Of a stretch of 64,000 nucleotides of DNA, positions 12,179 to 60,971 are shown one piece after another; the stretch's first letter is position 1, and each line of letters starts with the position of its first letter. Both the position numbers and the translations under genes were made by a program. The stretch is from Dehalococcoidia bacterium (GTDB lineage Bacteria; Chloroflexota; Dehalococcoidia; Lucifugimonadales; Australimonadaceae), in assembly GCA_965248455.1 (NCBI GenBank), contig OZ252105.1:1754737-1818736 (forward strand), read 5' to 3'. The notes under the pieces are model-generated. The model made no database searches. It was not told the origin of the DNA and saw only the letters and a program-made list of their open reading frames with translations.

Positions 12179-12297
12179 AGGGCAGTCCTCCCGTCTCCTT
12201 ATAACTGAGGCCGTTCCCAAGTACCGGAGGTATCGCTCCAACTACGCAGTCCCGCAATAATAGCACGCCGCCTGTCTCGCAGTGTCCAGCCAACAGA

Positions 12298-12433
12298 GCG
12301 ACAAACGCCCATTGCGCCGACGCCGCGCCAGCCCATACAGTGGTTGGGCGCGTCGTTACGACGAAATCGCCCCGTCGTTCCCGCGAAGGCGGGAACCTCG
12401 CCCTCGGCCCCATCGCCCGCATAGACGAGAGGC
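12298..12433 (+). repeat. A-H element copy (promoter-like module A plus hairpin H) feeding into the tRNA-like array
   Basis: GCGACAAACGCCCATTGCGCCGACGCCGCGCCAGCCCATACAGTGG, with TTGCGC at 12312-12317, a 17-18 bp spacer and ATACAG/TACAGT at 12335-12341. Hairpin GTTCCCGC-GAAG-GCGGGAAC at 12377-12396. Ends in GACGAGAGG, where the iterons start in other copies. Confidence 0.8.
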
Positions 12434-12436
12434 TGT

Positions 12437-12508
12437 GGGCATTAGCTCAGTCAGTTAGAGCGTCGCGTCCACATCGCGGAAGCCAGAGGTTCGAGTCCCT
12501 ACCGCCCA
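12437..12508 (+). pseudogene. Degenerate tRNA-like sequence (anticodon-loop TCCACAT, Val-CAC-like)
   Basis: The D-arm GCTC-AGTCAGTTA-GAGC is intact. Defects: a 1-nt deletion in the 5' acceptor strand, acceptor mismatches, C at position 33, and the same aberrant T-arm as the other copies. No TATACT promoter in front. Confidence 0.4.
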
Positions 12509-12692
12509 TCACCGCTATCGGCCCAGGACTCCTGACCCCTGCGCTGCGGTTCAATTCCGCCTTCGAGTGCAACAACGGGACTCCGGCAGCGACGTACCAG
12601 CCTGAGCCGAAGCGAAGGTCAGCGGCTCTTCTCCCTCCGAACATCACGGGGCACGGAGGCCGAGCCTCAGCAGACATGCGGACGTGAACCGC

Positions 12693-12722
12693 TGGACTGC
12701 CCTGCGAGGCCAACCCTATACT
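12693..12722 (+). promoter_or_regulatory. Putative promoter of tRNA-like copy 2 (TGGACT-N18-TATACT)
   Basis: TATACT at 12717-12722, 11 nt upstream of the tRNA-like 5' end. The same module precedes copy 3. Confidence 0.35.
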
Positions 12723-12733
12723 CGAAAGACTGT

Positions 12734-12806
12734 GTGCGATTGGCCCAGCTGGCTAGAGCGTCGCGTTCACATCGCGGAGGCCAGAGGTTCGAGTCCCTAT
12801 CGCCCA
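12734..12806 (+). tRNA. tRNA-like gene, anticodon CAC (Val), non-canonical T-arm
   Basis: Manual cloverleaf. Acceptor GTGCGAT/ATCGCCC pairs 6 of 7 (U2-C71 mismatch). U8, A14, G18G19 and A21 are present. Anticodon stem TCGCG/CGCGG with loop TTCACAT. The T-loop TTCGAGT has only 4 nt (CCCT) on the 3' side of the stem, which requires a bulged A51. Confidence 0.5.
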
Positions 12807-12990
12807 TCACCGCTATCGGCTCAGGGCACCTGACCCCTGCGCTACGGTTCAATCGTGCCTTCGAGTGCAACGAGGGGATCCCGACAGCGACGTACCGTCC
12901 TGAGCCGAAGCGAAGGTCAGCGGCTCTTCTCCCTCCGAACATCACGGGGCACGGAGGCCAAGCCTCAACAGACATGTGGACGTGAACCGC

Positions 12991-13020
12991 TGGACTGCCT
13001 CGCGGGGCCAACCCTATACT
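12991..13020 (+). promoter_or_regulatory. Putative promoter of tRNA-like copy 3 (TGGACT-N18-TATACT)
   Basis: TGGACT at 12991-12996 and TATACT at 13015-13020. Confidence 0.35.
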
Positions 13021-13031
13021 CGAAAGACTGT

Positions 13032-13107
13032 GCGCGGTTGGTTCAGTTGGTTAGAGCGTCGCGTTCATATCGCGGAGGTCGGCGGTTCGAGTCCCTACCG
13101 CCCGCCA
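13032..13107 (+). tRNA. tRNA-like gene, anticodon CAT (Met/Ile2-type), encoded CCA, non-canonical T-arm
   Basis: Acceptor GCGCGGT/ACCGCCC pairs 6 of 7 (C2-C71). Anticodon loop TTCATAT. T-arm GGCGG-TTCGAGT-CCCT again needs a bulge (C51). G73 is followed by CCA. Confidence 0.5.
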
Positions 13108-13156
13108 CTTCCAGCCTAAGACAGTCGTGGAATTCAACCCAAGTGGAGGCAAATAT

Positions 13157-14019
13157 ATGTCCATCGATGATAAATTGAATAGTATCTCCACTCTAATCGA
13201 GGTAACCACGAGCACTGGTACTTTTCGGGGAACGGGGTTCTTCTACAATCAGTATGCGCCCACGGACAAACAGGGGCTTCAATACCGTCACATTGACGCA
13301 ATGTGGGTTGTGACCAATCGTCACGTATTGCTGCCCGGGCAGCAGGGTGTCGCATTTGCACCTTCAGCAGTGACGCTAAATATTCGCAAACTTACTGAAT
13401 CAGGTTTTATGGTTTGGGAACCGATCAAGTTATCGGCCGAAGAAGTCGAGACCCTTGCACGGTTTCATCCAAATAGGGCTGTAGATGTCGCCGCCATCAA
13501 TATCCTGGATCACTTTATTGAACGGTTCAATTCCAGTGATAAATACGTCGCGCCACATGCGCTTTCAGTTAAGGATCTCCCAGGAGACAATAGCGCAGAT
13601 ATAGAAGTGGCAAGTGACGTAATTATAGTAGGGTATCCAAGAGGCTTTTATGACAAGGTCAATCTCTTCCCCATTGTGAAGTCGGGAATCGTCGCTTCTC
13701 GTTGGGGTGTTGGTTTCGAAGGTAACCCATACTTCCTAATTGATTCCAAGCTGTTTCCAGGCTCTTCTGGGAGTGTGGTACTTTCAAAGCCTAACGATCT
13801 AATGATTAAGAACGGGCAAGTATGTATGCCGCAGAAAAGCATTTTTCGCTTTTGGGAATCTTTTCGGGTGAGCCCCAGTTTGAGGAACCTCCAGTGGAGA
13901 TCGGTGATCTCGTTGTCACACATAAGATCGGCTTTAATCTTGGAGTTGTTTGGTATGGCGAGTTGATTGAGGAGGTCATTTGCCAAGGCGTCCCTCCGAG
14001 CCAGGCATTGGCACCTTAA
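13157..14019 (+). pseudogene. Trypsin-like (S1/Trypsin_2-type) serine peptidase, frameshifted
   Basis: ORF 13127..13966 has an internal ATG at 13157 after GGAGG. It carries GTGFFY..VVTNRHV (His) and FPGSSGSVV (Ser). The reading frame switches near 13810-13835 into ORF 13822..14019 (...LLGIFSGEPQF...GVVWYGELIEEV). The region is visibly lower in GC. Confidence 0.7.
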
Positions 14020-14129
14020 GAACGGTACGCGGTGGAGCGAGCGATACCCAACCTCCACCCGATGCGCTGCTGGCACGGATCCCAGCCTCCCGCCCTCGCG
14101 GACGCGACGGGTTCGCCGAGCGCAATCCT

Positions 14130-14488
14130 GCGACAAACGCCCATTGCGCCGTCGCCGCGCCAGCCCTTACAGTGGTCGTATGCGTCGTTACGACGAAGGC
14201 ATATCGTCGTTCCCGCGAAGGCGGGGACCTCGCATCCCTGCCCCACGCAGACGAGAGGAATGAGACTGAATGAAACTAAATGAGACTGTTTTAAAAGTTC
14301 GTCACTCCTGGCCACTCGTGATGAAGCCAACCAAGGCCACAGCGAGGCCACGCTGGCTCAGCGCGTACGAGTGAACGGAGACCCAAACGAGACCACCCCG
14401 GCCTCATTTTCAGCCTCCCGACTAGGAGTGAATGGGGACAGATAGAGCCAAATGAGTCCTTGATTTGAAATTTACCCCTGAGGCGGCC
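14130..14488 (+). repeat. Complete A-H-B-C element (copy R1)
   Basis: Module A is 14130-14200, with TTGCGC at 14144-14149, N17, and TTACAG at 14167-14172. H hairpin at 14209-14228. Iterons AATGAGACTG / AATGAAACTA / AATGAGACTG at 14259-14288. TTTTAAAAGTTCGTCACTCCTGGCCACTC at 14289-14317. Module C runs to GAGGCGGCC at 14488. Confidence 0.9.
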
Positions 14489-14544
14489 CCCTACAGGTCC
14501 TTTCTCCCTCGGAGGACGGCTAAGATGAGAGTGAAGCCCCCAGC

Positions 14545-14610
14545 GCGTCTACGAGAGGAATGATCGGAAATGAGAGGAAATGAGAGGAAATTAAAAGTTT
14601 GCCACTCCTG
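14545..14610 (+). repeat. Solo B module 38 bp upstream of the enolase-superfamily gene
   Basis: CTACGAGAGG, then iterons AATGATCGGA / AATGAGAGGA / AATGAGAGGA (14559-14588), then AATTAAAAGTTTGCCACTCCTG. Confidence 0.85.
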
Positions 14611-14647
14611 AAAGCCCCGGAAGCGCTATCTCCGAAGGAACACCACC

Positions 14648-15745
14648 ATGAAGATCACCCACGTCGAACCGATCCTAGTCGCCCTCCCCTATGAGGACGG
14701 CGGCCCTGAACGAGAGACGACGCCCGGCCACAGCAGCGAGACCGTCCTTTCGCTGTTCGTCAAGGTCGAGACGGACGAGGGCGTCACCGGTTGGGGAGAG
14801 GCCTTCAGCTTCGCCACCGTGCCGGTCACCATCCCCGCCATCGCCGATGCGGTCGGACCGCTCGCCATCGGGCAGGACCCAACCGACATCGAAGCGGTCG
14901 CCGAGGACCTGCGTCGGCGCTATCAGAACATGATGCGCGGAGGGCCGGCGCGCTTCGCGCTCTCCGCCATCGAGATCGCCATGTGGGACATCAAGGGCAA
15001 GGTCGAGGGCAAACCCATCTGGCAACTCCTGGGAGGCGCGCCTAGGGAAAGCATCGAGGCCTACGCGAGTATGTTCCGCTACCACGAACCGGCGGTCGTC
15101 AAACAGATCGCCGCATCCGCCTGGCAGCGCGGCTACAGGAAGATCAAGCTCCACGAGCGAACCGTCGAAGCAGTCGCCGCCGCCCGAGATGCCCTCGGAT
15201 CCGGCGTGCCGCTCATGGTCGACGTCAACTGCGCCTGGTACCCCGACGAAGCCATCTCAATGGCGCAGCAGATGCAGCCCTACGACATCGCCTGGCTCGA
15301 AGAGCCGGTCTCGCCCCCCGACGACTACGACGGCTTGGCGCGAGTCCGTCGCGAGGGCGGAGTCCCGATCGCCAACGGTGAGAACATCGGCAATCCCTAC
15401 GATGTCAGATGGATGGCTGCCCGGGGCGCAGTCGATATCGTGCAGCCCTCCGTGGTCAAGCACGGCGGCATCAGCGACATCATGCGCATGGTCGAGATCG
15501 CCGAAAGCGCAGGCATGCGCGCCGTCCCCCATTGCCCCTTTGTCGGCCCCGGCCTGCTGGCGACCATCCACATCATCGCCGCGATGAAGACCGAGACGCC
15601 CTGCGAACACCGCTACTGCGACCTCAAAGCAAGCCCGCTCGGCGATGCCGTCGCCGCCGTGAACGGTCGTCTCAGCGTGCCGCAGGGCCCCGGCCTCGGC
15701 GTCGACCCGGATCTCGCCATCCTGGAACGCTACCGGGTTCGATAG
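14648..15745 (+). CDS. Enolase-superfamily enzyme (mandelate racemase/muconate lactonizing enzyme family)
   Basis: 365 aa. KIKLH, the metal ligands DVN...EEP...ENI, and an N-terminal capping domain layout. Confidence 0.85.
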   Translation: MKITHVEPILVALPYEDGGPERETTPGHSSETVLSLFVKVETDEGVTGWGEAFSFATVPVTIPAIADAVGPLAIGQDPTDIEAVAEDLRRRYQNMMRGGPARFALSAIEIAMWDIKGKVEGKPIWQLLGGAPRESIEAYASMFRYHEPAVVKQIAASAWQRGYRKIKLHERTVEAVAAARDALGSGVPLMVDVNCAWYPDEAISMAQQMQPYDIAWLEEPVSPPDDYDGLARVRREGGVPIANGENIGNPYDVRWMAARGAVDIVQPSVVKHGGISDIMRMVEIAESAGMRAVPHCPFVGPGLLATIHIIAAMKTETPCEHRYCDLKASPLGDAVAAVNGRLSVPQGPGLGVDPDLAILERYRVR

Positions 15746-15767
15746 AACGCTCGGTGCTCAGCAGGCG

Positions 15768-16133
15768 TCAGCCGTTCTCGCGACTGGGCCCGACCCTTTC
15801 GTCCTTGACGTTCGGGTCGTTGCCGGCAACATGGAGGATTTGCAGAGGTTCCGTCCCTGAGCTCTCGAACCAATACTTGAAGCCGTGGGGCATCACGATT
15901 CCCTCTTGCACCCCCAGCTCGGCCAGCACGACGTCACCCTCGCCGTAGAACTTCACGGAGCCTTGCAGAACCATGAAGAACCCATCGCTCACCGTGTGGC
16001 TGTGCAGCCTGTTCTCCCCGCCCTCTTTCACGAGCTGCATGTCCGCCGACACCCTGTCCGTCTTGCAGAGAACCGTCAAGTTCTTCGATCGATCGTTATC
16101 CGGACGCTGGTAACTGAACTGCTGGAGTTCCAT
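15768..16133 (-). CDS. Cupin domain protein
   Basis: 121 aa. The GGENRLHSH...GFFMVLQG...HGF pattern is typical of a cupin barrel. Confidence 0.7.
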   Translation of the reverse strand: MELQQFSYQRPDNDRSKNLTVLCKTDRVSADMQLVKEGGENRLHSHTVSDGFFMVLQGSVKFYGEGDVVLAELGVQEGIVMPHGFKYWFESSGTEPLQILHVAGNDPNVKDERVGPSRENG

Positions 16134-16474
16134 GCCGCATCAGCCTCCCTTTACCGCCTGCGGGTGCATCGCTCACCCTACGTATCGTGTCGAGACAACA
16201 GCCGGAGGGTTGAACCCTTCTCGCGGAGTATAGAGAAACGGTGGGTAGCATGCGAACCACGCGGTTAGCAGGAGCGCCCGGCAGCAGGCAACAGCAATCA
16301 CAGGTCGCGCTGCCTGCGGTAGACTACGCGGCGTCCCCACGTCTGCCCATCATCCGGGAACTTGCGAAAGGATACAGCTGATGGACATGCTCAGGCGGGT
16401 CGTCGGTGTGGTTCTTACGGTGCTGGCGGTCGTGCTGTCACACTGACCTGTGCGCGGATAGCCTGCCGCCTGCA

Positions 16475-17659
16475 TCAGCCGCCCTGCGTTGCGCCGACCT
16501 TGGTTCCGAAGCAGCGCTCGGCGTTCTCCCAGAACAGCTTGCGCTTGGCATCGGCGTCAATGCTGTCCCAGCCAAGGACGATGTCGACGGAGTCAGGGAA
16601 CCGCGACTCGGCGTGCGGGTAGTCCGACGAGAACATCAGCATCTCGTCGCCGCAGAGGCTGTTGACCATCCGCACCATGTCCTCGCCCTCGTGCAGCACG
16701 ACTGCGGCGAAGAACCGGCCTCCCGTCGTGTACTCCCACATGGACTGCTTGAGGTCGTCGGCGACGTAGCCCATGTAGGTAACTTGATCCTCCATGCGCT
16801 TGGCCCAGAACGGTATCCAGCCGAAGCCCGACTCCAGGATCGCGAGTTTCAGGTCCGGGTGGCGATCCATGATCCCCGATCCGAAGAACGCCCCCACCGT
16901 GCGCATCGCTCCCCATGGATGCGACGCCGTCCGGCCCAGGAACGGATTGTCCCAGAGGTCGCGCTCGCCGGGGTAGCCCGACGCACTGCTGTGGTGAACG
17001 ACGGTCAGGCCCTGCCGGCTGGCCTCGGCCCAGATCGGCTCCAGATCCGGGTGGTCAATCGGGTAGTCGAGCGGCAGATGCACAGTCATCGCAGTCGCCC
17101 AGGGCGCGCCTTCCCAACGCCGCATCTCCGTAACCGACCCCTCGACGTCCCTCGACGTGGTTTGCAGCATCGACGTGAACCGCCCGGGATACCTGCCGCA
17201 GACCTCATCCAGGTAGGCGTGGAGCGCACGGATGAACGCCATGTCTACGTCCGGGTCTTCGTGCGACCCGAAGGCGTTGCAGACGAGGAACTGCGTATCG
17301 ACGCCCTCCCGGTCCATCTCCTCGATGCGTTTGTCGATCAGGTCATCCTCGACGCCAACGGTGGGGTAGATCCGGCCCATGAACTGCTGGAAATGGCGCT
17401 CCTCGCCCTCTCGCGGCCCGGCCTCGCCGAGGCGGCGCGCCTGCCGCTGGCCCCATCCCTCCGCGCTGCCGCCGAACCGGTACCAGTTCTTGAAAGGCTC
17501 GGAGAGCTTCTGCCCTGCCCTGCCGGTCTTCACCGGACGTTTGAACGGCTCGAACTCCGCCAGCCGCGCTCGATATGCGGGCTCGAGGTACTCCACGATC
17601 GTCTCCACCGATGGCTGAAAATGGGTGTCCGCATCCCATACGCGGTAGCCTGCTCTCAC
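16475..17659 (-). CDS. Amidohydrolase-2 (ACMSD-like metal-dependent hydrolase/decarboxylase) family protein
   Basis: ORF 16475..18166 trimmed to the GTG at 17659, preceded by GGGAGGGG. Shows VWDADTH at the N-terminus and ...SSDYPHAE near the C-terminus. The long N-terminal extension in the track is Arg/Pro-rich junk. Confidence 0.8.
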   Translation of the reverse strand: MRAGYRVWDADTHFQPSVETIVEYLEPAYRARLAEFEPFKRPVKTGRAGQKLSEPFKNWYRFGGSAEGWGQRQARRLGEAGPREGEERHFQQFMGRIYPTVGVEDDLIDKRIEEMDREGVDTQFLVCNAFGSHEDPDVDMAFIRALHAYLDEVCGRYPGRFTSMLQTTSRDVEGSVTEMRRWEGAPWATAMTVHLPLDYPIDHPDLEPIWAEASRQGLTVVHHSSASGYPGERDLWDNPFLGRTASHPWGAMRTVGAFFGSGIMDRHPDLKLAILESGFGWIPFWAKRMEDQVTYMGYVADDLKQSMWEYTTGGRFFAAVVLHEGEDMVRMVNSLCGDEMLMFSSDYPHAESRFPDSVDIVLGWDSIDADAKRKLFWENAERCFGTKVGATQGG

Positions 17660-17727
17660 GATTCCCCTCCCAGGACGACTGCCTCGCCATGACTCGATGT
17701 CAGCCGATGATACCTCACGACGCGGGG
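17652..17727 (-). promoter_or_regulatory. Conserved 76-nt leader/RBS/start module, copy 1 (amidohydrolase)
   Basis: Minus-sense sequence CCCCGCGTCGTGAGGTATCATC...CGAGTCATGGCGAGGCAGTCGTCCTGGGAGGGGAATCGTGAGAGC. It is duplicated at 20619..20694. Confidence 0.6.
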
Positions 17728-17784
17728 CTTGGAGCGTATGGAACGGGTTCACACGGTTTTCAGGAGTGGCACGTCGCCCTGACG

Positions 17785-20580
17785 CTAGCGGACGGCGGCA
17801 ATCGTTTCGGGGATGGGTATCTCGATGCCGTACTCGCTTTCCGTTGCGCGGACATCGTAGGAGGAGCAGGCGTCCCGGTTGCCGACGTCGAACTGCCAGC
17901 GCATCTCGTACTGCGAGACCTCGTAGGTTCGTGTGCTGAGCGTGATGCTGATGCGCAGGGTCACGCTGCGCGCCCAGGAGGGCTGTAGGGCTTCCACGCC
18001 CGTGAGCGTTACCTTCAGCGTGGCCTCGCCGGGGGAAGGCCGCGTTAGCTCGACGGAGCCGGGGTCCGCGTAGCTGATGATGTTGACGAGCATATCGGCG
18101 GGGTTGGTGAAACCGTTCCGCCAGTTCGTAACGTCGGCGATAGCGCTGATGCTCGTCCCTCGCCATTCACTCGCGCGCTGCCGCCAGTAGCGCCATCCCA
18201 CACTTTCGGAGTAGCGGAAGATGAAACCCCGGGAGTTGCTGTCGAGACGAACAACGGCAGGGAAGCCGTAGCCGAGGTCCCCGATGGCATACCGGCCGTT
18301 GAAGGTGGCGTCGCGGCAGCCGCTTTGTCCTCCCCATCCGCCTCTGACGCGGAAGCGGGCGGAATCCGCCTCGAGCAGCGCAGCGTAGGCGCGTTCGGCG
18401 AGCCGGACGCCGTTCTCCTCAGCGACGGTGGGCGACGAGCCGCGCAGATTGTCGGCGAACACGATCAGCTCCTCGACCTCCTCCATCGTCATGCCGGGGC
18501 GGACGAGCGGGTGCGCGTGAAGGCGGAACAGCGCCTCGTCCAGCTCGCTCATCTCTGGCAGGCGCAGTGCGCTGTGAATGGACATCACACTGATGGGGGC
18601 AGGCCGGTGGTGTACTGCAGCGAGGGCATGGAGCGCCTCGTGGAGGGTTACGTGCCGAACCTCTGCGCGGAGTTCATCGGAGCCTCCCGTGCGGGTATCC
18701 AGCCACACGCTGATGGAGGCGTCGGTGACGGCGCCGTCCACGTAGAAGTCCGGCCCTCCGCACCCTGCCGCGTCCTGGCAGTATTCCTTGAACCCGATAT
18801 CCGCACTCCGGGTGGCCGGCACGCCAACGTACGCCTTGAGTTGCGCCTGGTCTCGTGTGTCCACCCACTCGAAATCGAGGTTCAGCAAGGGGGAGAGGCT
18901 ATCGAGCATCTCCTCCAGCACGCGGATGTACAGCGAATCGCCGGAGGGGTCTGCCCAGACCGTCACCGGCCCTTCCTGATCCCACTTGCGGATAGTTGGC
19001 GACGTCCACCCCCCACAGCCGCCGAGGAAGTCGTTGTCCAGAGTAGCTTCCCAATCGGGCCTGTCGCTGAAGCACTCCCAGACATCCCGATCGACGCCCA
19101 GGATGCGCTCCGGCACAGCAATGGGGGCCGATTCCGCTGCGCCATCGGCGAGGCTGGCGCGCAGGTCCGCGCCCATCGGCGCACGCACGCGCAGCACGTG
19201 CTCCGAAGGTCCGAATCCGTCCAGCAACCCCACGCTCTTCACCGCGCCGCCGCACCCACTCACCGGTTCGCCACTGTCTCCATGACAGCTCACGGCGATG
19301 TCATAGCTCTCCGTTGCAGGGCGGTAGCCGTCGTTGTTCAACGATAGCGCGAGTTCGACCTCCACCGTGCCGTCCGACCAGTAGCCGAGCACCTCCGCCG
19401 TCGCATCGAGCGCGAGTTCGACCGGCAGCTTGTCCAGTACGCGGATGACGTTCTGCGCGGTGTTGCGTTCGCCCCAACGGTAGCCGTCGTCCGGCGCTCC
19501 GGCGTAGGCGGTAACGAGCGTCTCGCCTTGCGGTAGGACGAGCATCAGGGTGGCATTCGCGCTGCTGCCTACTGGGATAGACCCTAGCGTTGCGGAGGAG
19601 GCGCAGACAGGAGGGGCGTCGTTGCAGAGCACGCCGACGGTCAGGGGGCCGCTTGGCCCGGCGCCCTCGTTCGCGACTCTCAGGGGTATCTCCACGATGC
19701 CGTCGCCGTCGCGATCGTAGCGGACTGTGCGCGCTGCACCGATGGCGAGGACGAGACCCACATATTCCACGAATACCGGCGCTGTGATGGCGTTGTCGTC
19801 GGTCAAGGCTTCAAGGCTTGTGGTCGCGGCGGAGAGCGTGATGTCGTACGCGCCGGTAGGGATGGGCAGGAGGAGCGTCGTGGTCTCGCTCGCGCCGGGT
19901 TCGATGCGCTCGATGATGACGGCTCGTTCGGCGCTGCCGGAGACGCCATCGTCATCGGGCAGCGCCGTCCATGCGGCGGAGAGCGCAACATCCTCTGCCG
20001 CGATGCTGCCCGCGTTGGTGACGCGCGCCTCGAACGCCATCGCACCGTCACCCGCAACGGCGTACTCCGTCAGCTCAAGCGCGAGGTCGGCTGCGTGAAC
20101 GCTCACGAACTCCGAACGCTCCGCGCCGCCGACGCTGAACGTGATGCGGTGCTCCCCAGGAGCGAGCGCCCGCACGATGGTGAGCGTTGCCGTTTCGCCT
20201 CCGGCCAGGCCGCTGATCATCCCGTCGTCCTGGAACGCTCCTCCGTCGACCGCGACACGGACGGCGACATCCTGTCCCGTCGCCTCGCCCTCGTTCGTCA
20301 CTGTAAGCGAGAGTTCGACCTGCACGGAGCCATCGCCCGCTCCGGTGAACTCAACGCCGTCGTAGGTGGCGCGATACGAGGCAGGCAGCGGCGTAGGCTT
20401 GGGCGTGGGCGATGGGGTCGGGGTTGGGGTTGGGGCCGACGTAGGCATCGAGGTAGCCGTCGGGGTAACCGGTGGGGTCGGCGTCGGGGCCGCGTTGCAC
20501 GCCAGCAGCGTCGCGACGGAGAGGATGCACGTCAGCGTAACGGCTGGGCGCCAGGCGGAGCGCACGAACACTCTACGCAA
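17785..20580 (-). CDS. Large secreted lipoprotein with Pro/Thr linker, CARDB-like repeats and a C-terminal HExxH zinc-metallopeptidase-like region
   Basis: 931 aa. Signal with lipobox LLAC. PTPTPPVTPTATSMPTSAPTPTPTPSPTPKPTP linker. Repeated ...VTNEG/VANEG...TL modules. HVTLHEALHAL motif. TTG start as given by the track. Confidence 0.7.
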   Translation of the reverse strand: MRRVFVRSAWRPAVTLTCILSVATLLACNAAPTPTPPVTPTATSMPTSAPTPTPTPSPTPKPTPLPASYRATYDGVEFTGAGDGSVQVELSLTVTNEGEATGQDVAVRVAVDGGAFQDDGMISGLAGGETATLTIVRALAPGEHRITFSVGGAERSEFVSVHAADLALELTEYAVAGDGAMAFEARVTNAGSIAAEDVALSAAWTALPDDDGVSGSAERAVIIERIEPGASETTTLLLPIPTGAYDITLSAATTSLEALTDDNAITAPVFVEYVGLVLAIGAARTVRYDRDGDGIVEIPLRVANEGAGPSGPLTVGVLCNDAPPVCASSATLGSIPVGSSANATLMLVLPQGETLVTAYAGAPDDGYRWGERNTAQNVIRVLDKLPVELALDATAEVLGYWSDGTVEVELALSLNNDGYRPATESYDIAVSCHGDSGEPVSGCGGAVKSVGLLDGFGPSEHVLRVRAPMGADLRASLADGAAESAPIAVPERILGVDRDVWECFSDRPDWEATLDNDFLGGCGGWTSPTIRKWDQEGPVTVWADPSGDSLYIRVLEEMLDSLSPLLNLDFEWVDTRDQAQLKAYVGVPATRSADIGFKEYCQDAAGCGGPDFYVDGAVTDASISVWLDTRTGGSDELRAEVRHVTLHEALHALAAVHHRPAPISVMSIHSALRLPEMSELDEALFRLHAHPLVRPGMTMEEVEELIVFADNLRGSSPTVAEENGVRLAERAYAALLEADSARFRVRGGWGGQSGCRDATFNGRYAIGDLGYGFPAVVRLDSNSRGFIFRYSESVGWRYWRQRASEWRGTSISAIADVTNWRNGFTNPADMLVNIISYADPGSVELTRPSPGEATLKVTLTGVEALQPSWARSVTLRISITLSTRTYEVSQYEMRWQFDVGNRDACSSYDVRATESEYGIEIPIPETIAAVR

Positions 20581-20618
20581 GGCTGGGAAACGTGCGGAAA
20601 AGCCGCTCTCGGTAATCC

Positions 20619-20694
20619 GCTCTCACGATTCCCCTCCAAGGTGACTGCCGCGCCACGACTCGGCGCCGGAGCGATGATACCCCACGACGCGGGG
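20619..20694 (-). promoter_or_regulatory. Conserved 76-nt leader/RBS/start module, copy 2 (lipoprotein)
   Basis: Same sequence family as 17652..17727. Here its GTG opens a 17-codon uORF (VRADYRERLFRTFPSLA*) whose stop overlaps the TTG start at 20580. Confidence 0.6.
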
Positions 20695-20818
20695 CGGGTG
20701 CCGAGCGGGCTGCCGCTACGCTCAACCGAGGGAGCCATACCGTAGTTTTCAGCGTTCTGTCCGTTTATCGGTCATTTCCCTCGATCGCTCAAACTTCTGG
20801 CGCGCGCGGTTGTTATAG

Positions 20819-21199
20819 GGCCGCCTCAGGAGTGAAATTTCAAATAGGGGACTCATTTGGCTCTATTTGGCTCCATTCACTCCTAGCCGGGAGGCTGAAA
20901 ATGAGGCCGGGGTGGTCTCGTTCTGCTTTCCGGTCACTCGTACGCGCTGAGCCAGCGTGGCCTCGCTGTGGCCTCGTTTGGCCTCGGTTACGGATCCGTA
21001 GGCGGGGCTGGGAGTGGCCAAGAGTGGCGAAACTTTTAAAACGGTCTCATTTAGTCTCATTCAGTCTCATTCCTCTCGTCTACGCGGGCCAAGGATGCGA
21101 GGTTCCTGTCTTCGCGGGAACGACGAGGGGCCTTCGCCGTAACGACGCACACAACCACTGTAAGGGCTGGCGCGGCGACGGCGCAATGGGCAATTGTCG
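20819..21199 (-). repeat. Complete A-H-B-C element (copy R2), inverted relative to R1
   Basis: On the plus strand the order is C (20819-20995), B core GAGTGGCCAAGAGTGGCGAAACTTTTAAAA, iterons 21042-21071 (reverse complement AATGAGACTG / AATGAGACTA / AATGAGACCG), H at about 21095-21125, then A to 21199. Reverse complement of TTACAG at 21158-21163 and of TTGCGC at 21181-21186. Confidence 0.9.
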
Positions 21200-21380
21200 T
21201 GGGGTACGCGTAGGGGTTGGTCTCGCCTCTGCTCTCGTCGCCCCAAGGGGCAGTTATGCGAATTAGGGGTTTATCGGGTTTCGCTAAACCATCCTAAACT
21301 TCCTATAAACCCGTCACTCGCCTCGGTTGCCAGTTGTCAAAAGGAGGTCGTTCGATCCCTCGCCGCCATTAGGTGAGGCG

Positions 21381-22643
21381 CTAGTCGTGGCGGCCCAGTA
21401 GGCGGGATAGCTCCGCCATGGCGGGGCTGCCGGCGGATGCGGCGGACGGCATACTCTCGTATCGTTCCAGCAATGCCGACTCTGAAAACTGCTGTGGCCA
21501 GTCCAGGTTAACGGCGGTCCATTCCTCAGTGCGCTTTACGGCAGACAGGTTGAGCAACTCGACCATATCCCGCACCATCGCACGGTCGGGGTGCTTGAGA
21601 TCTCTGTAATGTACGTAGTTTCGTGTGTAGAGGTCGCGAAGGCTGAGTTCCCCTGCATCCAACAGGAGGTCGAGAATCCGCAGTTGCCGTTCGGCGAGCG
21701 CCCTGCGCCTGCTGTTGCGTAGCTTCCCGAACAGCGACCGTGCGAACTCGCGGTAGAGCACCCGCTTCTGATGATTGACGATCTGCGCGACGAGCGCGTT
21801 GCAGCTCTCTGCGACGGCTGGCAATGCGAACAGCAGGAACGGGGTGAGGTCGTGCTCATTCCGGCGAGACTCGTACAGCGCCGCCCGGTACTCTTCTGCG
21901 TGCTCGTAGTAGTAGTTGGAGAGGCTGACCATGACCATCTCGTTGACGTGGGCCTCTCGCAGCATGAGGGCTTCCAGCGCGCGGGCGGTGCGCCCGTTGC
22001 CGTCGCCGAAAGGATGCATCGCACCGATATGGTAGTGGGCGGCCATCGCCTGGATGATGCGGTCATGCTGCGGGAACTCCGTGGTGATTGCATCCGCCAG
22101 CCTGTTGAAAGCGGCTCGGCAACCATCGCCTCCTGCGATGCCCCGACAGCGCGGCATCCCAAAGATGACGTTGTCTCCGGCGGATCGTGTTGCGCCGGGT
22201 TCGCAACGGTCGTCGTCACAGCCGGTGACGATGCGCCGGTGAATGTCCAGAATCAACTCGGCAGTAACCGGCTGGTCGGTTTGCAGTGAACGCAACCAGC
22301 GGTACGTGGCGTTGGCTGATCGCAACTGCCGTTGGGAGTGCGTCAGATCGGTACGCGCAGAAGCGTCGGGAGCAAAGGCTTCGTCCCGTTCACGCTGGGT
22401 AAACTCAGCCCCCTCTATGCGTGCAGTGCCGACTGCCTCCAGCCGCAGTTGCTCCTCGTGGGCCTGTTCGATCCACTGGGGCAGGTAGGGCATCCGGTTC
22501 AGGACACCGGCTGCGGTTCTGGCTTCGATCAGCGGACCCGCAACGGCCGCAATGTCGTAGCGCACCCACTGCCGCGGGACGACGTAGTGGCTCACAGGCT
22601 GCGTAGTCATGTACGGGTCGCTTCGCCGCATTTCAAAGTTCAT
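21381..22643 (-). CDS. Fic family protein (AMPylase-type; class II with internal inhibitory helix)
   Basis: 420 aa. Fic motif HPFGDGNGRTARAL. N-terminal TARIEGAEF matches the (S/T)xxxE(G/N) inhibitory motif. TATAAT and AGGAG lie upstream at about 22655-22675. Confidence 0.9.
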   Translation of the reverse strand: MNFEMRRSDPYMTTQPVSHYVVPRQWVRYDIAAVAGPLIEARTAAGVLNRMPYLPQWIEQAHEEQLRLEAVGTARIEGAEFTQRERDEAFAPDASARTDLTHSQRQLRSANATYRWLRSLQTDQPVTAELILDIHRRIVTGCDDDRCEPGATRSAGDNVIFGMPRCRGIAGGDGCRAAFNRLADAITTEFPQHDRIIQAMAAHYHIGAMHPFGDGNGRTARALEALMLREAHVNEMVMVSLSNYYYEHAEEYRAALYESRRNEHDLTPFLLFALPAVAESCNALVAQIVNHQKRVLYREFARSLFGKLRNSRRRALAERQLRILDLLLDAGELSLRDLYTRNYVHYRDLKHPDRAMVRDMVELLNLSAVKRTEEWTAVNLDWPQQFSESALLERYESMPSAASAGSPAMAELSRLLGRHD

Positions 22644-22805
22644 TTCGTGTTTCTACTCCTAAATTATACCGGTTTCCCAATTCCATTTCAAGTTCGTTTC
22701 AGATTGGTTTCCATGCTGCTCGTCAGCGCCCCGTAGCCTCCACGCCTGCACCATCCCACTCGATGAGTGACGGGCGCCCCTACACCCACCATCCGTGTCT
22801 CGAAT

Positions 22806-22960
22806 GCGACAACAGCCTATTGCGCCGTTGACACTTCAACCTTTACCATCATTTGCATACGTCAGCCTGCCGCGCGGGCGGAACCTCGCATCACGAGGAA
22901 ACGGAACGAAATGGAACTGAATGGAACCAATTTAACAGTTTGCCACTCCTACGCACTCCT
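22806..22960 (+). repeat. A-H-B element copy (divergent)
   Basis: GCGACAACAGCCTATTGCGCC (TTGCGC at 22820-22825)...TTTACCA. Hairpin-like CCTGCCGCGCGGGCGGAACCTCGC. Iterons AACGGAACGA / AATGGAACTG / AATGGAACCA at 22900-22929. ATTTAACAGTTTGCCACTCC. Confidence 0.8.
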
Positions 22961-23181
22961 GAGAGTCTCACCACGCGTGGAATCGCATAGCAATGAGCAA
23001 GAACGAGCACGAGCTTCAGCAGGCGCGGGAATGGCCCCTTGTCTCTATCGTGTCCCTTCCAGAACGGATCCGGGTGCGGCACGAAACATCGGGCGCGTCG
23101 ACCTCAGCGAGGATACCCTGCGCGAGATGCGAGACGCAGGGCGACCGTGATCGTCGTCAGCCCGCGCGACGGGAGCGACCC

Positions 23182-28058: not shown

Positions 28059-28910
28059 ATGAACCGCATCGTGCTTGCCGACAATATGGCGGTGCTCCCG
28101 ACTATCGAGCCGGGCACGGCCAACCTCATCTACATCGACCCGCCGTTCAACACCGGCAAGGCGCAGCAGCGCGACCGTCTGCGAACCGTGCGCGACGACG
28201 AAGGCGGCGACCGCACCGGCTTCCAGGGCAAGCGCTACCGCACGCTAAAGCTCGGCTCGCAGTCGTTCGCGGATGCGTTCGACGATTTCATGGCGTTCAT
28301 CGAGCCCCGGCTGATGGAGGCGCACCGCATCCTCGCGCCGGACGGCTCGCTCTTCCTCCATATCGACTACCGCGAGGCGCACTACTGCAAGGTGATGCTC
28401 GACGCGCTCTTTGGCCGGGAATGTTTCATGAACGAGATCATCTGGGCGTACGACTACGGCGGACGACCGAAGAATCGCTGGCCCGCCAAGCATGACTCGC
28501 TGCTCTGGTACGTGTGCGACCCTGAACGCTACACGTTCAACTACGAGGCGGTCGACCGCATATCGTACATGGCGCCGGGGCTGGTGGGCGCCGAGAAGGC
28601 AGCGCGAGGCAAGACGCCCACCGACGTCTGGTGGCAGACCATCGTGCCTACGAACGGGCGCGAGCGCACCGGCTACCCGACACAGAAGCCGCTCGCGATT
28701 CTCGACCGCATCGTCAAGGTGCACTCGAACCCCGGCGACCTCGTGATGGACTTCTTCGCGGGGTCGGGCACGACGGGGGAGGCGGCGGCGCGCAACGACA
28801 GGCGCTACTACCTCATCGACAGCAGCATCGAGGCCGCGCAGGTCATGGCGCAGCGCCTCGCCTTCAGCGCTCCTGAGTGCGTGGGGTTCACGCCCGCTCA
28901 GTGTCGGTAG
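28059..28910 (+). CDS. DNA methyltransferase, beta-class N6-A/N4-C (second copy, different sequence)
   Basis: 283 aa. Motif IV IYIDPPFNTG and motif I VMDFFAGSGTTGEAA. Confidence 0.85.
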   Translation: MNRIVLADNMAVLPTIEPGTANLIYIDPPFNTGKAQQRDRLRTVRDDEGGDRTGFQGKRYRTLKLGSQSFADAFDDFMAFIEPRLMEAHRILAPDGSLFLHIDYREAHYCKVMLDALFGRECFMNEIIWAYDYGGRPKNRWPAKHDSLLWYVCDPERYTFNYEAVDRISYMAPGLVGAEKAARGKTPTDVWWQTIVPTNGRERTGYPTQKPLAILDRIVKVHSNPGDLVMDFFAGSGTTGEAAARNDRRYYLIDSSIEAAQVMAQRLAFSAPECVGFTPAQCR

Positions 28911-32157: not shown

Positions 32158-32640
32158 CTATCGGGGCACGGCGGCGGCTTCGGGGTGCTGGGCAGCGGCC
32201 CTATCCTCCACCACCAAGGAACGCCCAACGACTTCGAGGGCCTTTTCGACTGACGCAATGTGGGATCGATGCCCCGGATCGAGAAGCCGGCGGACTGCGT
32301 TCTCCTGTAGGCCCAGCCGGGCGGCAAGGGCGACATTGGTGATGTCCTGTTCCCGCATCGCCGCATAGAGGGCAATCTTCGCTGCGACGATGGGCACCAC
32401 GGAGATCAGCACCTGGCCCTCCGCCAGAAGGCTGGGAGCGGGGATGTCTTCACGGGCCTTGACGCACATGCCCAAGGCGACTCCCAAGCAGTCCTTGGCC
32501 ATCTCCAGTGTCTCTTCCCATGACCATCCGCCTGTGTTGGCCCCGTACACGTCCGGAAAGGTCGCGTTGTAGGCTTCCCTTCCAGTCGTTCGTTCTTCCT
32601 CCACATCACGGACGATACTGCACGGGTAGGCGTAGCGCAT
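32158..32640 (-). CDS. hicB: HicB-family antitoxin (HicB fold plus C-terminal HTH)
   Basis: Internal ATG at 32640, preceded by GGGAG. MRYAYPCSIVRDVEE...TNVALAARLGLQENAVRRLLDP. Confidence 0.8.
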   Translation of the reverse strand: MRYAYPCSIVRDVEEERTTGREAYNATFPDVYGANTGGWSWEETLEMAKDCLGVALGMCVKAREDIPAPSLLAEGQVLISVVPIVAAKIALYAAMREQDITNVALAARLGLQENAVRRLLDPGHRSHIASVEKALEVVGRSLVVEDRAAAQHPEAAAVPR

Positions 32641-32868
32641 GACCTGTAGCTCCCTTCTGTCGACGTGCAAGTCCTTCAGCATCGAAGCCAGTGTGCCCGT
32701 AGGAATCTCGCCATGAGGGACGGTAGTCCTGTAGAGCCCAAGCCGTACCTCTCCGTGGCTGCCCTTCCCGCGGCTGGGGGTGTAGTCGAAGTCCATCCTA
32801 TGCGTGCGTGCGTACCGCCGGGCACGCCTGAGAAACTCCCTGTCGTTCACGAATCCATTCCAGCACAT
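32641..32868 (-). CDS. hicA: HicA-family toxin reading frame, no stop codon before hicB
   Basis: MCWNGFVNDREFLRRARRYARTHRMDFDYTPSRGKGSHGEVRLGLYRTTVPHGEIPTGTLASMLKDLHVDRRELQV. It then continues in frame into hicB as one 265-aa ORF (32158..32955 in the track). Confidence 0.65.
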
Positions 32869-35955: not shown

Positions 35956-37284
35956 CTACGCGGCGCTCTTCACGTTGAACTGCAGCGCGGTGTGCGTGGC
36001 GGAGCGCGGGCTGCCGGTGCGCTCCGCGAAAGCGATGCGCATGCTGACGACCATGACGTTCTTGCGCCGCTGGATGTCCCGCTCCGTCTCGATCAGCAGC
36101 TCACGCTTGACGCCCTTGCGCCACTGCGTCCTGTTCACGAGCAGCAACCGCCCTCTGTCCGCGACGTTGCCTGCCGCGGTGACCTTGCCGTCGCTATCCG
36201 CCGGGCTCAGCTGCTCTGACACGATGAGCGGCACGCCCTCTATCGCGCCCAACTGGCCGGTGAGCAACGTCGCGTGCGGACCCAGCTTGTCGACCGTCTG
36301 GAAGCTCTCTACGGCCTGCACCGCGACGTAGGTGCCGATGTCCGTTACGAACGCCAACTCGGAGGGGCGGAGTCCGTACTTGCCCATCTTGCGTCGCAGC
36401 GCGTTGAACATGGACGCGGCGGGCGCGGCGTTGTAGTCGCTCCCCATCGCGGTGTTGTTCGCCAGGGGCTGGTGGATCAGGCCATCGAACCCTATCAGGT
36501 AGTGCGCTTTGCCCGCGGTGGACGGGGCCAACGCCGCACCGTCGTGGTTGATGTTGTTGGTCGTTGTCGTGTCGGCGTTGAGCAGAACGTCGTCGAGCAC
36601 CTGCGCGGCGTTCCGCACGAGGGTCGAGCGCACCTCCGCCATCATAGCGATGACGGCGTCCTCTTCCAGCTCGTAGGCCCATGGCACCATGCCGACCAGT
36701 TCATACGCCTTGAGCGTCTGCTTGGCCGTCGTCAGGTCGGTGGACGCGGCAACCGTATTGGTGGCGCCCGGGTACCAGTTGACGTCGCCCAGCTCGAGCG
36801 GCACGTCGAACGGGTTGGACGGCATGGTGACGGTCTCGAACAGAGAGGCCACGGCAGCCTCGGTATTCACGTCGGCCCACAGCTGGCGCGCCTCCTCCTG
36901 CGGCACGAGTTCGTCTCCCGCCCCGGCAGTCGTCGAATCCATCGCCTTGGCGACGCTCTCGCCCCAGGCACGGAGCATACGCGGGTCGTAGTCCTGCGGA
37001 CGCGCCTGCTGCGCCGCGAACAGGCTCCTGGCGATGGCGAGGTCCACCAGGTCGAATCCGTCCAGCTTGCCGCCGTGCACCCGGACGCGGTCGTTGGTGG
37101 TTCGGCTCAGAACGGCGTCGCGCCGCGAGGAGCGATCACGCTCCAGCGCACGGCGCACCTCTCCCGCGAGCCGCTCCTGCTCCTCACGCATGAGGGCCAA
37201 CTCCTTCGTGATGGGGTTGAGGCGTTCGCGGACGAACTCTTGGGTCTGCACGATCTCACGCTGTATCTCTTCCACTTCTGACAT
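35956..37284 (-). CDS. HK97-family phage major capsid protein
   Basis: 442 aa. N-terminal coiled-coil delta-like region (MSEVEEIQREIVQTQEFVRERL...). C-terminal ...LLLVNRTQWRKGVKRELLIETERDIQRRKNVMVVSMRIAF is typical of HK97-fold capsid proteins. Confidence 0.85.
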   Translation of the reverse strand: MSEVEEIQREIVQTQEFVRERLNPITKELALMREEQERLAGEVRRALERDRSSRRDAVLSRTTNDRVRVHGGKLDGFDLVDLAIARSLFAAQQARPQDYDPRMLRAWGESVAKAMDSTTAGAGDELVPQEEARQLWADVNTEAAVASLFETVTMPSNPFDVPLELGDVNWYPGATNTVAASTDLTTAKQTLKAYELVGMVPWAYELEEDAVIAMMAEVRSTLVRNAAQVLDDVLLNADTTTTNNINHDGAALAPSTAGKAHYLIGFDGLIHQPLANNTAMGSDYNAAPAASMFNALRRKMGKYGLRPSELAFVTDIGTYVAVQAVESFQTVDKLGPHATLLTGQLGAIEGVPLIVSEQLSPADSDGKVTAAGNVADRGRLLLVNRTQWRKGVKRELLIETERDIQRRKNVMVVSMRIAFAERTGSPRSATHTALQFNVKSAA

Positions 37285-37320
37285 CTCTCTCTTCCTCCTT
37301 TGGAATGTTCCCTTTGACGC

Positions 37321-37563
37321 TTAGCCCTGCATCACCGGCGCGGCCTCTATAGCCTGTGCGAGCTCCTCGCCGAACCGGCGCGCGCCCGCCGCGAGCGCGT
37401 CACGCTCCGCTGCGGTCAGGCCATCCGGCGCAGCCTTGCGCACGGCTTTCACCAGCCGCGCGCCGCTCTGCAGCACGTCCACGGCTTCCGGCGCCAGCCG
37501 GTACAGGTCGCTCACGACGCCGGCGGCACGCAATCCCACTCTCACTGCTTCCACGACCCGCAT
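37321..37563 (-). CDS. Hypothetical small protein (80 aa) between protease and capsid
   Basis: AAGGAGGAG RBS. Ala/Arg-rich and helical-looking. Confidence 0.4.
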   Translation of the reverse strand: MRVVEAVRVGLRAAGVVSDLYRLAPEAVDVLQSGARLVKAVRKAAPDGLTAAERDALAAGARRFGEELAQAIEAAPVMQG

Positions 37564-37653
37564 CGCTCTCTCCTCCTTCTTTCTCTTTCCTGTGTTCTGC
37601 TGACGAAAACCGGCGCTCCGGCGCTCCCGTCCTGTGCAGGAGCGGCGAGGCTG

Positions 37654-37757
37654 CCAGGAGTGGCCAGGCGTGGCGAACTTTTAATTTCCGCTCATTTCCG
37701 CTCATTCGCCCGAACCTTCACCCTCTCCCTCGCCTGGATTCCAGCCTCCGCTGGAAT
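37654..37757 (-). repeat. H-B element copy inside the phage head module
   Basis: Hairpin ATTCCAGC-CTCC-GCTGGAAT at 37738-37757. Reverse-complement iterons AATGAGCGGA x2 at 37687-37706. Reverse complement reads AATTAAAAGTTCGCCACGCCTGGCCACTCCTGG. Confidence 0.8.
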
Positions 37758-37773
37758 GACGGGGCAGGGGCTA

Positions 37774-38469
37774 TTACTCCGCTACGATCTGGCGGAGCCT
37801 CCGCAGCTCGGCGATGACCTTCTGCGCCGACGACGGGTCGATGCAGGCCGCCGGGAGGTCGAACGTCAGCACGGACCGCAGCCTCGGCACGTCCAGCCCT
37901 CCATCGAGCGCCCTTGCGAGCGCGTGCGGGTTCGCCGGCACCGGCACGGCGCTCACCTCCAGCAGCTCCTGCCGGGTGTACTCCACGCCCTCTATGGCTC
38001 CGCCCTTGCCTTTGCGGAACGTGAAGGCGTGAGCCCTGAAGCCGACGCTCACCGCGCGCAGAAAGCGCTGCCGGTACAGCGTCTCCACCTCTCTCGCGAA
38101 ACCGGTCGGCGCGAACTCCAGGGTGGCGAGCAGGCGCTTGCCCTCGACCCCAACCCAGGAGCTGCGTCCGATGGGGGTGCGGGTGTAGTCGTGCGCCCAC
38201 AGGAAGACCGGGTTGTGCTTGTATGCATTGAGATCCCAGCCGCTGACCCGCACGATGTCGCCGAGCCTGTCCTCCGATTCGTCCGAGGCCACGACGGTGA
38301 GCGGGCGGGCGTCGTTCGGGAGCGCCGCGCGGCCTATGGCGAACTTCTGCACGAGCGGCGCATCCGCCAGCCCCCGGCGGTACGCATCCAACGATTCGAG
38401 GAGCCGTTCGCGCTCCCAACGCTCACGCTCGTTCACGCCCTCAACTGCTTCGGTAGTGGTCATCTGCAC
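37774..38469 (-). CDS. HK97-family prohead serine protease (S78)
   Basis: 231 aa. NPVFLWAHDYTRTPIGRS...VSVGF...LEVSAVPVPANP. Confidence 0.85.
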   Translation of the reverse strand: MQMTTTEAVEGVNERERWERERLLESLDAYRRGLADAPLVQKFAIGRAALPNDARPLTVVASDESEDRLGDIVRVSGWDLNAYKHNPVFLWAHDYTRTPIGRSSWVGVEGKRLLATLEFAPTGFAREVETLYRQRFLRAVSVGFRAHAFTFRKGKGGAIEGVEYTRQELLEVSAVPVPANPHALARALDGGLDVPRLRSVLTFDLPAACIDPSSAQKVIAELRRLRQIVAE

Positions 38470-51256: not shown

Positions 51257-51285
51257 TTGACAAGCCCCGGCAGGGTGCCTATACT
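51257..51285 (+). promoter_or_regulatory. Strong sigma70-type promoter of the 23S rRNA unit (TTGACA-N17-TATACT)
   Basis: TTGACA at 51257-51262 and TATACT at 51280-51285, about 185 nt upstream of the mature 23S 5' end. Confidence 0.7.
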
Positions 51286-51468: not shown

Positions 51469-54461
<2,993 letters not shown>

Positions 54462-60892: not shown

Positions 60893-60971
60893 GCGGTTAT
60901 TGTACTCGCAGCAACAGTTCGCAGTCAGAACCAGCGGGACGCACGTAACTGTTCAGCAACTGTGTTGAAAG

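Follow-up and report, generated by a model that had tools for sequence, protein, structure and literature searches.

A ~370-bp inverted repeat pair in a Dehalococcoidia genome probably comprises two members of a modular intergenic repeat family upstream of convergent transcription units

The 64,000-nucleotide stretch of a Dehalococcoidia genome analysed here (the window) contains two non-coding modular repeats, R1 (14128-14490, plus strand, 363 nt) and R2 (20818-21202, minus strand, 385 nt), which face inward around a 6.3-kb segment of four genes. We propose that R1 and R2 are probably old paralogous copies of an intergenic repeat, each lying 5' of its own transcription unit, and that the inverted geometry is a by-product of this placement. 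R1 would serve an enolase-superfamily gene on the plus strand, and R2 a CARDB-amidohydrolase-cupin unit on the minus strand. Because the two units converge, two upstream copies that are each co-oriented with their unit form an inward-facing inverted repeat. A sequence-only reading had offered two accounts of the pair. The first, a composite mobile unit or invertible segment, is not supported: there is no transposase, no target-site duplication and no inversion in any related contig, and the interior is not fixed. The second, promoter platforms for two convergent units, fits best in view of the orientation bias and box spacing of the family, and the promoter activity that it entails is something we infer.

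The arms and their repeat family

The inverted pair was recovered by both a repeat search and blastn. With R1 as query against the window, R2 was the top match (21199-20818; 84.3% over 382 columns, E 4e-120), in agreement with the claim that these two copies are the closest pair; a global MAFFT alignment gave 82.3% over 378 shared columns. Identity is ~82-84% over the whole arms and reaches 90% in each of two ungapped inverted blocks, 14131-14299/21031-21199 (169 nt) and 14323-14473/20835-20985 (151 nt). Other details of the sequence-only reading were borne out. The word AATGAGACT is common to both arms, the 10-mer AATGAGAC(T) occurring three times in each (R1 14259-14288, R2 21071-21042); a single block indel, adjoining GGCCAAACGAGGCC, gives R2 an extra ~23 nt at ~20987-21010; and both arms place module A outermost and module C innermost.

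R1 and R2 are members of a modular family with at least eight sites in the window, which were located by blastn and by nhmmer profiles built from the copies. Seven copies of module A lie at 12297, 14128, 21202(-), 22805, 31354(-), 50834 and 62744(-), eight of module B at 14256, 14556, 21074(-), 22897, 31262(-), 31027(-), 37706(-) and 62393(-), and four of module C at 14364, 20944(-), 50987 and 62283(-). These copies keep the order A, B, C without exception. Module A contains the boxes CGACAAnnGCCCATTGCGCC and TACNNT 18 nt apart, a small hairpin, and then a CGTC palindrome with an 8-bp stem and a 4-nt loop (CGTC GTTCCCGC GAAG GCGGGAAC). Copies of the CGTC hairpin lie at 12373, 14205, 31110/31137, 37761 and 62808, with a degenerate one in R2. 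Module B consists of a 10-nt unit, AATGnnnnnn, repeated two or three times in the window and followed by an AT box, TTTAAAAGTT, and then by CACTCCTG. The variable part of the unit is uniform within a copy and differs among copies (GAGACT, GAGAGG, GGAAC, GAGCGG, GCAAC), and the module B pattern has six exact matches in the window against none expected. Module C has a core of ~110 nt, near-invariant in 14 copies, and a terminal second B-like unit; the 41 invariant columns of the family alignment are concentrated in this core.

R1 and R2 are both full A-B-C copies. The profile hits in R1 span 14128-14257 (A), 14256-14317 (B) and 14364-14473 (C core). The box pair of R1, a candidate sigma70-type promoter, is TTGCGC at 14144-14149 and TACAGT at 14168-14173 with the 18-nt spacer between them, and a CGTC-tagged hairpin of the repetitive extragenic palindrome (REP) type follows at 14205-14231 (CGTC GTTCCCGC GAAG GCGGGGAC). 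Module B of R1 (14259-14311) reads AATGAGACTG/AATGAAACTA/AATGAGACTG, then TTTTAAAAGTT, then CGTCACTCCTGG. Module C (14312-14490) has a variable start, the conserved core AACGAGACCACCCCGGCCTCATTTTCAGCCTCCCGACTAGGAGTGAA, and a B-like tail of three 10-nt units that ends in TTTGAAATTTACCCCTGAGG. A second, gene-proximal B unit, B2 (14544-14610, plus strand), ends 37 nt before the enolase ATG at 14648. R2, directed toward the CARDB gene, has profile hits at 21202-21073 (A), 21074-21011 (B) and 20944-20835 (C); its boxes are TTGCGC at 21186-21181 and TACAGT at 21162-21157, its 10-nt units occupy 21071-21042, and its extra block ~21010-20987.

How widely is the family distributed? We compared the arms across ~15 contigs of close relatives (Chloroflexota/Dehalococcoidia). 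Among these, L023-L027 carry CARDB homologues at 99, 90, 86 and 86% identity, and L038-L047 are the 10 contigs fetched among 12 that carry the exact cupin protein. Searching with the enolase protein returned Chloroflexota/Dehalococcoidia metagenome-assembled genomes at 79-92% identity, and in six of these relatives (80-92%) the family element is absent upstream of the enolase gene and within ~20 kb. Two exact-pattern scans of Joint Genome Institute (JGI) metagenome contigs gave zero matches. With no copy in these relatives or in the JGI contigs, the family appears narrow. Look-up of the exact enolase protein and of protein P0104 found no record. The family is undescribed and lineage-specific, and it is of a familiar kind.

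Mobility, inversion and exchange between the arms

A few hundred bases of inverted repeat around several genes is the geometry of composite transposons and invertible segments, and in this locus it is real and non-random. The 6.3-kb segment might accordingly have moved as a composite transposon or been flipped by recombination between the repeats, a reading that we find highly improbable. Its distinguishing features are missing: the arms have no transposase, no target-site duplication, no second orientation in the related contigs and no constant cargo. Pfam searches of the open reading frames (ORFs) tested across 13.1-26.1 kb revealed no transposase, invertase or recombinase, and the sole transposase in the window, of IS110 type at 60972-61931, is unrelated in sequence to the arms. 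Just outside the arms, where the flanks read GGTTCGCCGAGCGCAATCCTG and GGTACGCGTAGGGGTTGG, there is no target-site duplication, and no direct repeat is common to the left flank ending in GCCGAGCGCAATCCTG and the right flank beginning with GGTACGCGTAGGGG.

The related contigs show the arms at orthologous positions and in a constant orientation. R1 orthologues precede the enolase gene in L024, L026, L027, L038-41, L043 and L044; R2 orthologues are present in L023-L027, L040 and L042, with other genes next to the copy in L042. Both arms occupy orthologous positions in L024, L026, L027 and L040. The order Fic-R2-CARDB-amidohydrolase-cupin-enolase-R1-...-dxs is kept wherever a contig reaches (L024-27, L040, L042; partly L023 and L039), and the orientation of enolase relative to dxs is constant in L038-41 and L043. 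Eight contigs span both sides of the segment and more span one side, and none has the gene order inverted. We therefore found the elements without any signal of rearrangement, whether inversion or excision, which is what the sequence-only reading had named as evidence against mobility. An invertible segment was rejected since no related contig has the inverted arrangement.

Moreover, the arms stay in place while the genes around them change. Within the segment, L025-27 and L039 have a Type IIG/ISP restriction-modification (R-M) gene and a tandem array of module A inserted between CARDB and the amidohydrolase gene, L042 has a replacement for CARDB, and an integrase-bearing island abuts cupin in L038 and L041, which have R1 and no R2 nearby. 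Outside R1, the slot between R1 and dxs holds a tRNA array and a trypsin-like peptidase gene in the window, DUF433 and a Type IIG enzyme in L024, two tRNAs and a TIR protein in L043, and an rve integrase with four other genes in L040. Beyond R2, a KAP-type NTPase gene lies between R2 and Fic in L023. PADLOC scored these cargo genes as defence candidates (PDC-S45 2e-37, PDC-S35, SoFic 1e-40, PDC-S20 5e-102, Type IIG R-M). The interior and both outer flanks thus turn over independently of the arms. That the neighbourhood is a hot spot of gene turnover is a point in favour of a mobile or invertible segment; the interruption and replacement of the interior between standing arms, and the lone copies of the element at many unrelated genes, argue against one. 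A composite transposon was rejected on these grounds: no transposase, no duplication, arms independent of the interior, and a segment that is never present or absent as a block.

Two other forms of mobility were also rejected. The element does not belong to the miniature inverted-repeat transposable elements, as its ends, GCGACAAACGCCC... and ...CTGAGGCGGCCCC, are not mutual inverted copies and the edges of indels lie off the edges of the element. Nor is module A an integron-like cassette site. A solo copy of it at 12297-12431 (plus strand) is in direct orientation to R1 (88%) and ends 4 nt before the tRNA array at 12436-13106. Its orthologues adjoin dxs in L024, L038-41, L043 and L044, with different cargo after each. 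The break points past this copy vary from cargo to cargo, and therefore module A is not a site-specific attachment site.

The arms are old. Orthologous arms are 89-94% identical, as against 81-85% for R1 versus R2 in every genome, and therefore the duplication is older than these lineages. The mosaic pattern of the alignment points to block-wise exchange of sequence by gene conversion within the family, for which R1 and R2 are the simplest partners. Clustering is by orthologue at the outer end of A and in the C tail, and by genome at the start of C, which reads GGCCACAGCGAGGCCACGCTGG in both arms of the window and L023 and GGCCAGCGTGGCCTCACGGTGG in both arms of L024-27. Similarly, R2 has the B word AATGCAAC in L024-26 and the R1 word AATGAGAC in the window and L023. 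Between the window and L023, CARDB is 99.7% identical, while module A of R2 is 89.8% and the outer spacer 81.5% identical; the difference between CARDB and module A places a recombination break inside R2. Arms that exchange sequence by gene conversion can pair, a point in favour of an invertible segment. Inversion, the crossover product of such an exchange between R1 and R2, was not seen in the related contigs.

Module A as a candidate promoter

What could the arms contribute to the genes behind them? We suggest that module A supplies a sigma70-type promoter composed of TTGCGC, 18 nt and TACAGT, with a conserved CGACAA box just upstream. Transcription would then pass the CGTC-type REP hairpin and modules B and C, which would form a long leader into the gene. 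Module B would act as a slippage-prone 10-nt array beside an AT-rich box, changing by whole helical turns between strains, and could tune expression.

The placement of the family is consistent with such a role. We counted 16 independent sites across the window and its related contigs, and 13 of them aim at the start of a co-oriented downstream gene (one-sided binomial p ~0.01). Modules A and C lie upstream of the 23S rRNA gene, and a truncated A precedes DUF433 in five contigs. Where the R-M gene parts the amidohydrolase gene from CARDB, the amidohydrolase gene has its own A array and a B-C-B copy. The solo A stands directly before the tRNA array, and no other promoter-like site lies ahead of the first tRNA. 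Furthermore, the boxes CGACAAnnGCCCATTGCGCC/TACNNT and the 18-nt distance between them are kept in 23 non-redundant copies of A with differing spacers, some of which have unrelated spacer sequence (L031, L032, L028_5073 and the 22.8 kb copy). Boxes that persist while their spacers diverge form the pattern expected of a promoter, and from these sequence patterns a promoter role is the best-supported reading of module A.

Several observations weigh against this role. TTGCGC-18-TACAGT matches 7 of 12 consensus positions, with A2 and T6 of the -10 present, and the boxes fell below the threshold of a promoter scan and were not called. The clear promoters of this organism look like TTGACA-N17-TATACT, unlike the boxes of A. 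The CARDB and amidohydrolase genes share a separate proximal leader with a TATCAT box, and this leader could be their true promoter. A few sites aim at the 3' end of a gene: those at 22.8 kb in the window, in L032 and in L028/L035, with a fourth at L038 202-482. In L025-27 module A forms tandem arrays of four to seven copies, an odd arrangement if it were a simple promoter. Finally, orthologous arms diverge about as much as third codon positions (85-94%), which indicates weak constraint and gives no evidence of strong purifying selection. Because of this weak constraint and the separate TATCAT leader, the promoter role of module A is something that we infer and do not claim to have demonstrated.

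Several of the same observations would suit a different explanation, in which the arms are neutral or selfish mosaics around REP hairpins, similar to bacterial interspersed mosaic elements (BIMEs), that are tolerated in long upstream spacers while the real promoters lie nearer the genes. Divergence at the level of third codon positions, the narrow range of the family, the tandem arrays of module A, the three or four sites directed at gene 3' ends and the proximal TATCAT leader of CARDB and the amidohydrolase gene all agree with it. In addition, CGTC- and GTAG-tagged hairpins insert independently, as in the case of a 60-nt hairpin within R2 of L025/L026. However, neutral repeats would not be expected to favour downstream gene starts at 13 of 16 sites, to supply the one promoter-like site ahead of the first tRNA, or to hold a box pair at constant distance across diverged spacers. 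We regard neutral or selfish repeats as rather unlikely.

Module B also varies in a way that might bear on regulation. Its unit count ranges from one to five among orthologous copies: B2 before the enolase gene (window 14559-14591; L024 16420, L039 11578, L040 9177, L046 3653) has one to three units and R1 of L039 (11830-11910) has five. The variable part of the unit changes among strains as well (AGCGG, AGAGG, ATCGG). As judged from these sequences, the variation in count points to slippage in whole helical turns. Tandem repeats in promoter regions that vary by slippage underlie phase or rheostat variation in Neisseria and Haemophilus. The variation of B from one to five units among orthologous copies in close strains resembles these systems. 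It differs from them in that each B unit spans a full helical turn, with a position upstream of the AT box rather than in the interval from -35 to -10. Module B was rejected as a canonical sigma70, sigma54 or extracytoplasmic function (ECF) promoter, as no convincing hexamers were seen by eye; the best candidate, ATGAGA-17-AAAAGT, reached 7 of 12. As the ATG-led heptapeptides of module C are not conserved among copies, small ORFs in that module were rejected too.

A more ambitious proposal is that A-B-C units are self-propagating portable regulatory cassettes, combining a promoter, a 10-nt-array expression rheostat and homology for swapping defence cassettes. Swaps would take place in the hot spot between dxs and the FAD-oxidase gene, and each new cassette would arrive behind an A copy or gain one. 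We consider this improbable.

Could modules B and C instead form a structured RNA, either a cis leader or a small RNA transcribed from A? CACUCCUGG would pair with CUAGGAGUG and close a multi-branched fold. The minimum free energy fold of R1 has a 10-bp closing helix (14303-14311 with 14420-14430), and both pairing strings are kept in nearly all A-B-C copies, where single-sided changes retain G-U pairs. The remaining evidence makes this reading distinctly improbable. Fold z-scores are weak (-1.1 forward, -2.0 reverse), and RNAalifold on 14 copies found no compensatory pairs and a consensus of -14.5 kcal/mol. The inner helix is broken without compensation in R2, in the 62 kb copy and in the R2 of L024 (L024_R2), and on the forward strand most copies carry an A-C mismatch in the GAGACC/GGCCTC hairpin. 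Solo B units occur without the pairing partner. There was no Rfam match at gathering score, the only hits over R1 being at chance level (E>3). With Rfam negative, weak z-scores and no covariation, a structured RNA or riboswitch was rejected as the main explanation.

The nearest published concept is promoter propagation, or putative mobile promoters. These were defined as similar non-coding stretches (>50 nt, >=80%) before non-homologous genes in one genome; their presence varies among related strains, and spread through recombination or mobile DNA was proposed (PMC3488235). R1 and R2 share 84% over 382 columns, their downstream genes (MR_MLE and CARDB) are unrelated, and so are their upstream neighbours (peptidase/tRNA and Fic). 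They differ from the published elements in being longer and modular, and also in position. The screen of Matus-Garcia, Nijveen and van Passel (2012, PMC3488235) was confined to positions -150 to -50 relative to the start codon, whereas R1 lies 158-520 nt and R2 ~240-620 nt upstream; B2 and the 86-nt CARDB/amidohydrolase leader alone fall within that range. This 86-nt leader agrees with the published operational definition of a putative mobile promoter (PMC3488235).

The hairpins have their own relatives. REPs are short palindromes with an unpaired GTAG or CGTC tag at one end and multiple extragenic copies (Di Nocera et al. 2013, PMC3733652). The palindrome of module A, with its 8-bp stem and 4-nt loop, has this form and resembles CGTC-1 REPs (PMC3733652), and GTAG-tagged palindromes, like GTAG REPs, occur in the same arrays in related contigs. 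BIMEs also combine hairpins with other conserved motifs in mosaics (PMC2817692). In classical BIMEs, REPs alternate in orientation at regular spacing and lie mostly at the 3' ends of genes. In contrast, the elements described here have one hairpin each, a fixed A-B-C order, 10-nt arrays and a bias to gene 5' ends. No alternation of REPs was found: R1 and R2 have one hairpin each, and the arrays of L026 run head-to-tail with a 255-nt period.

Such arrays occur at L026 16324-17438, L025 16365-18524, L027 16564-17681 and L039 6827-7348, with periods of 255 and 184 nt and three to seven units. They lie between the inserted Type IIG/ISP R-M gene and the amidohydrolase gene, and their unit comprises a GTAG-tagged REP, module A, a CGTC REP and a CCCTTCTCCC...GGGAGAAGG hairpin.

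Genes around the arms and significance

The gene content proposed by the sequence-only reading was matched by Pfam. R1 faces the enolase-superfamily (MR_MLE) gene at 14648-15745 (plus strand; MR_MLE_C 4.5e-58, MR_MLE_N 7.5e-20). The minus-strand unit behind R2 begins with the CARDB/HExxH gene for a predicted secreted protein (17785-20580; CARDB 4.5e-11), continues with the amidohydrolase-2 gene (16475-17659; Amidohydro_2 5e-18; a 394-aa product is annotated in related contigs) and ends with cupin (15768-16133; Cupin_2 2.1e-06). The one detail to correct is that the plus strand carries the enolase gene only, CARDB, amidohydrolase and cupin all being on the minus strand. HEALH occurs at residue 647 of the CARDB protein, whose N-terminus contains a signal-like stretch, ...TLLAC. 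The shared leader occurs as minus-strand paralogues before the amidohydrolase gene (17643-17728) and before CARDB (20610-20695), the latter containing GGTATCAT and the ribosome-binding region GGAGGGGAATCGTG. The pair comprises direct repeats of 88% and 96%, both at 2967-nt spacing, and the amidohydrolase leader has blastn matches of 80-85% in relatives.

Both flanks are also as had been described. The low-GC islet on the left comprises three tRNA genes (12436-13106) and a peptidase gene of 46.5% GC. The tRNA genes, Val-CAC, Val-CAC and Met-CAT, lie in tandem in the slot between the dxs-proximal A copy and R1 (12436-13966), with a 298-nt unit and low Rfam scores (33-39 bits), and TGGACT-18-TATACT occurs in the units ahead of the second and third. 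The trypsin-like peptidase after them matches the defence candidate PDC-S45 (2e-37). The equivalent slot in L043 (3470-5032) has tRNA-Ile(GAT), tRNA-Val(CAC) and a TIR protein (PDC-S35). tRNA genes that travel with single-gene defence candidates may merit separate study.

On the right, Fic (21381-22643) is followed by a further A+B copy (22805-22962, plus strand), between Fic and the FAD-oxidase gene and within a 435-nt indel (22740-23175). The indel is present only in the window and L023; L024 and L025 have a short hairpin in its place. The A+B copy aims at the 3' end of the FAD-oxidase gene, and the indel has a possible ORF of 40-51 codons (22993 or 23031 to 23150). The variable neighbourhood also includes a HicA/HicB-like fused or adjacent toxin-antitoxin ORF (32158-32868, minus strand) and an N6/N4 DNA methylase (28059-28910, plus strand). 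Together with the SoFic-like Fic, these mark a defence/addiction hot spot.

Other family members lie beside genes of separate interest. The 23S rRNA gene (51469-54461) has a canonical TTGACA-17-TATACT promoter at 51264-51292 and a boxA-like GCACGTTAACAAG, and is followed by tRNA-Met (54539-54613). With neither 16S nor 5S rRNA detected in the window, the rRNA genes seem to be unlinked. A B-only module (37658-37706) lies within a minus-strand locus at 35956-38469, in which a phage-type major capsid gene (35956-37284) and a prohead protease S78 gene (37774-38469) flank an 80-codon ORF. Possible identities of this locus are a prophage remnant, an encapsulin-like locus and a satellite.

The IS110-family element (60946-62135, minus strand; transposase 60972-61931, DEDD_Tnp_IS110 and Transposase_20) lies directly downstream of the 62 kb A-B-C copy. 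At least 22 contigs carry the identical transposase, at different sites, and in every case it is co-oriented with the next gene. Of 10 loci fetched, 8 have the element directly beside a family copy or REP-like hairpin, and its left flanks resemble GGCATTCGCCTCATC. The 204-nt left end has internal repeats of AACTCTTG and CATC, as a bridge-RNA guide would, and a weak Rfam match to sX15 (35 bits, E 0.0014, opposite strand). Joining the ends would give TTGCTG-17/18-TATGTT, a possible junction promoter. IS110 elements use a bridge RNA as their guide, and repeats are often their targets (PMC11208160); siting beside repeats fits this behaviour, and R1 and R2 are not involved. The family was rejected as part of IS110, as the ends of the insertion sequence (60946-62135) are outside the A-B-C copy and the insertion sequence occurs without the family in L030 and L034. 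Just downstream of its right end, dxr (window 60893-60945; L033 4986-5040) appears to start ~7 nt after a TACAAT box (TTGCTGCGAGTACAATAACCGCATG), which suggests that the dxr mRNA may be leaderless or near-leaderless.

Why, then, describe this pair at all? The inverted pair is no new mobile device and should not be taken forward under that description. What is useful is an undescribed repeat family in uncultured Chloroflexota (Dehalococcoidia) that marks gene 5' regions and contains strain-variable 10-nt arrays. The family sits at the borders of slots in which defence genes turn over, and IS110 inserts beside a family copy. Proof that module A is a promoter would make the family a clear natural example of promoter reuse and a practical aid to the prediction of transcription units in these genomes.

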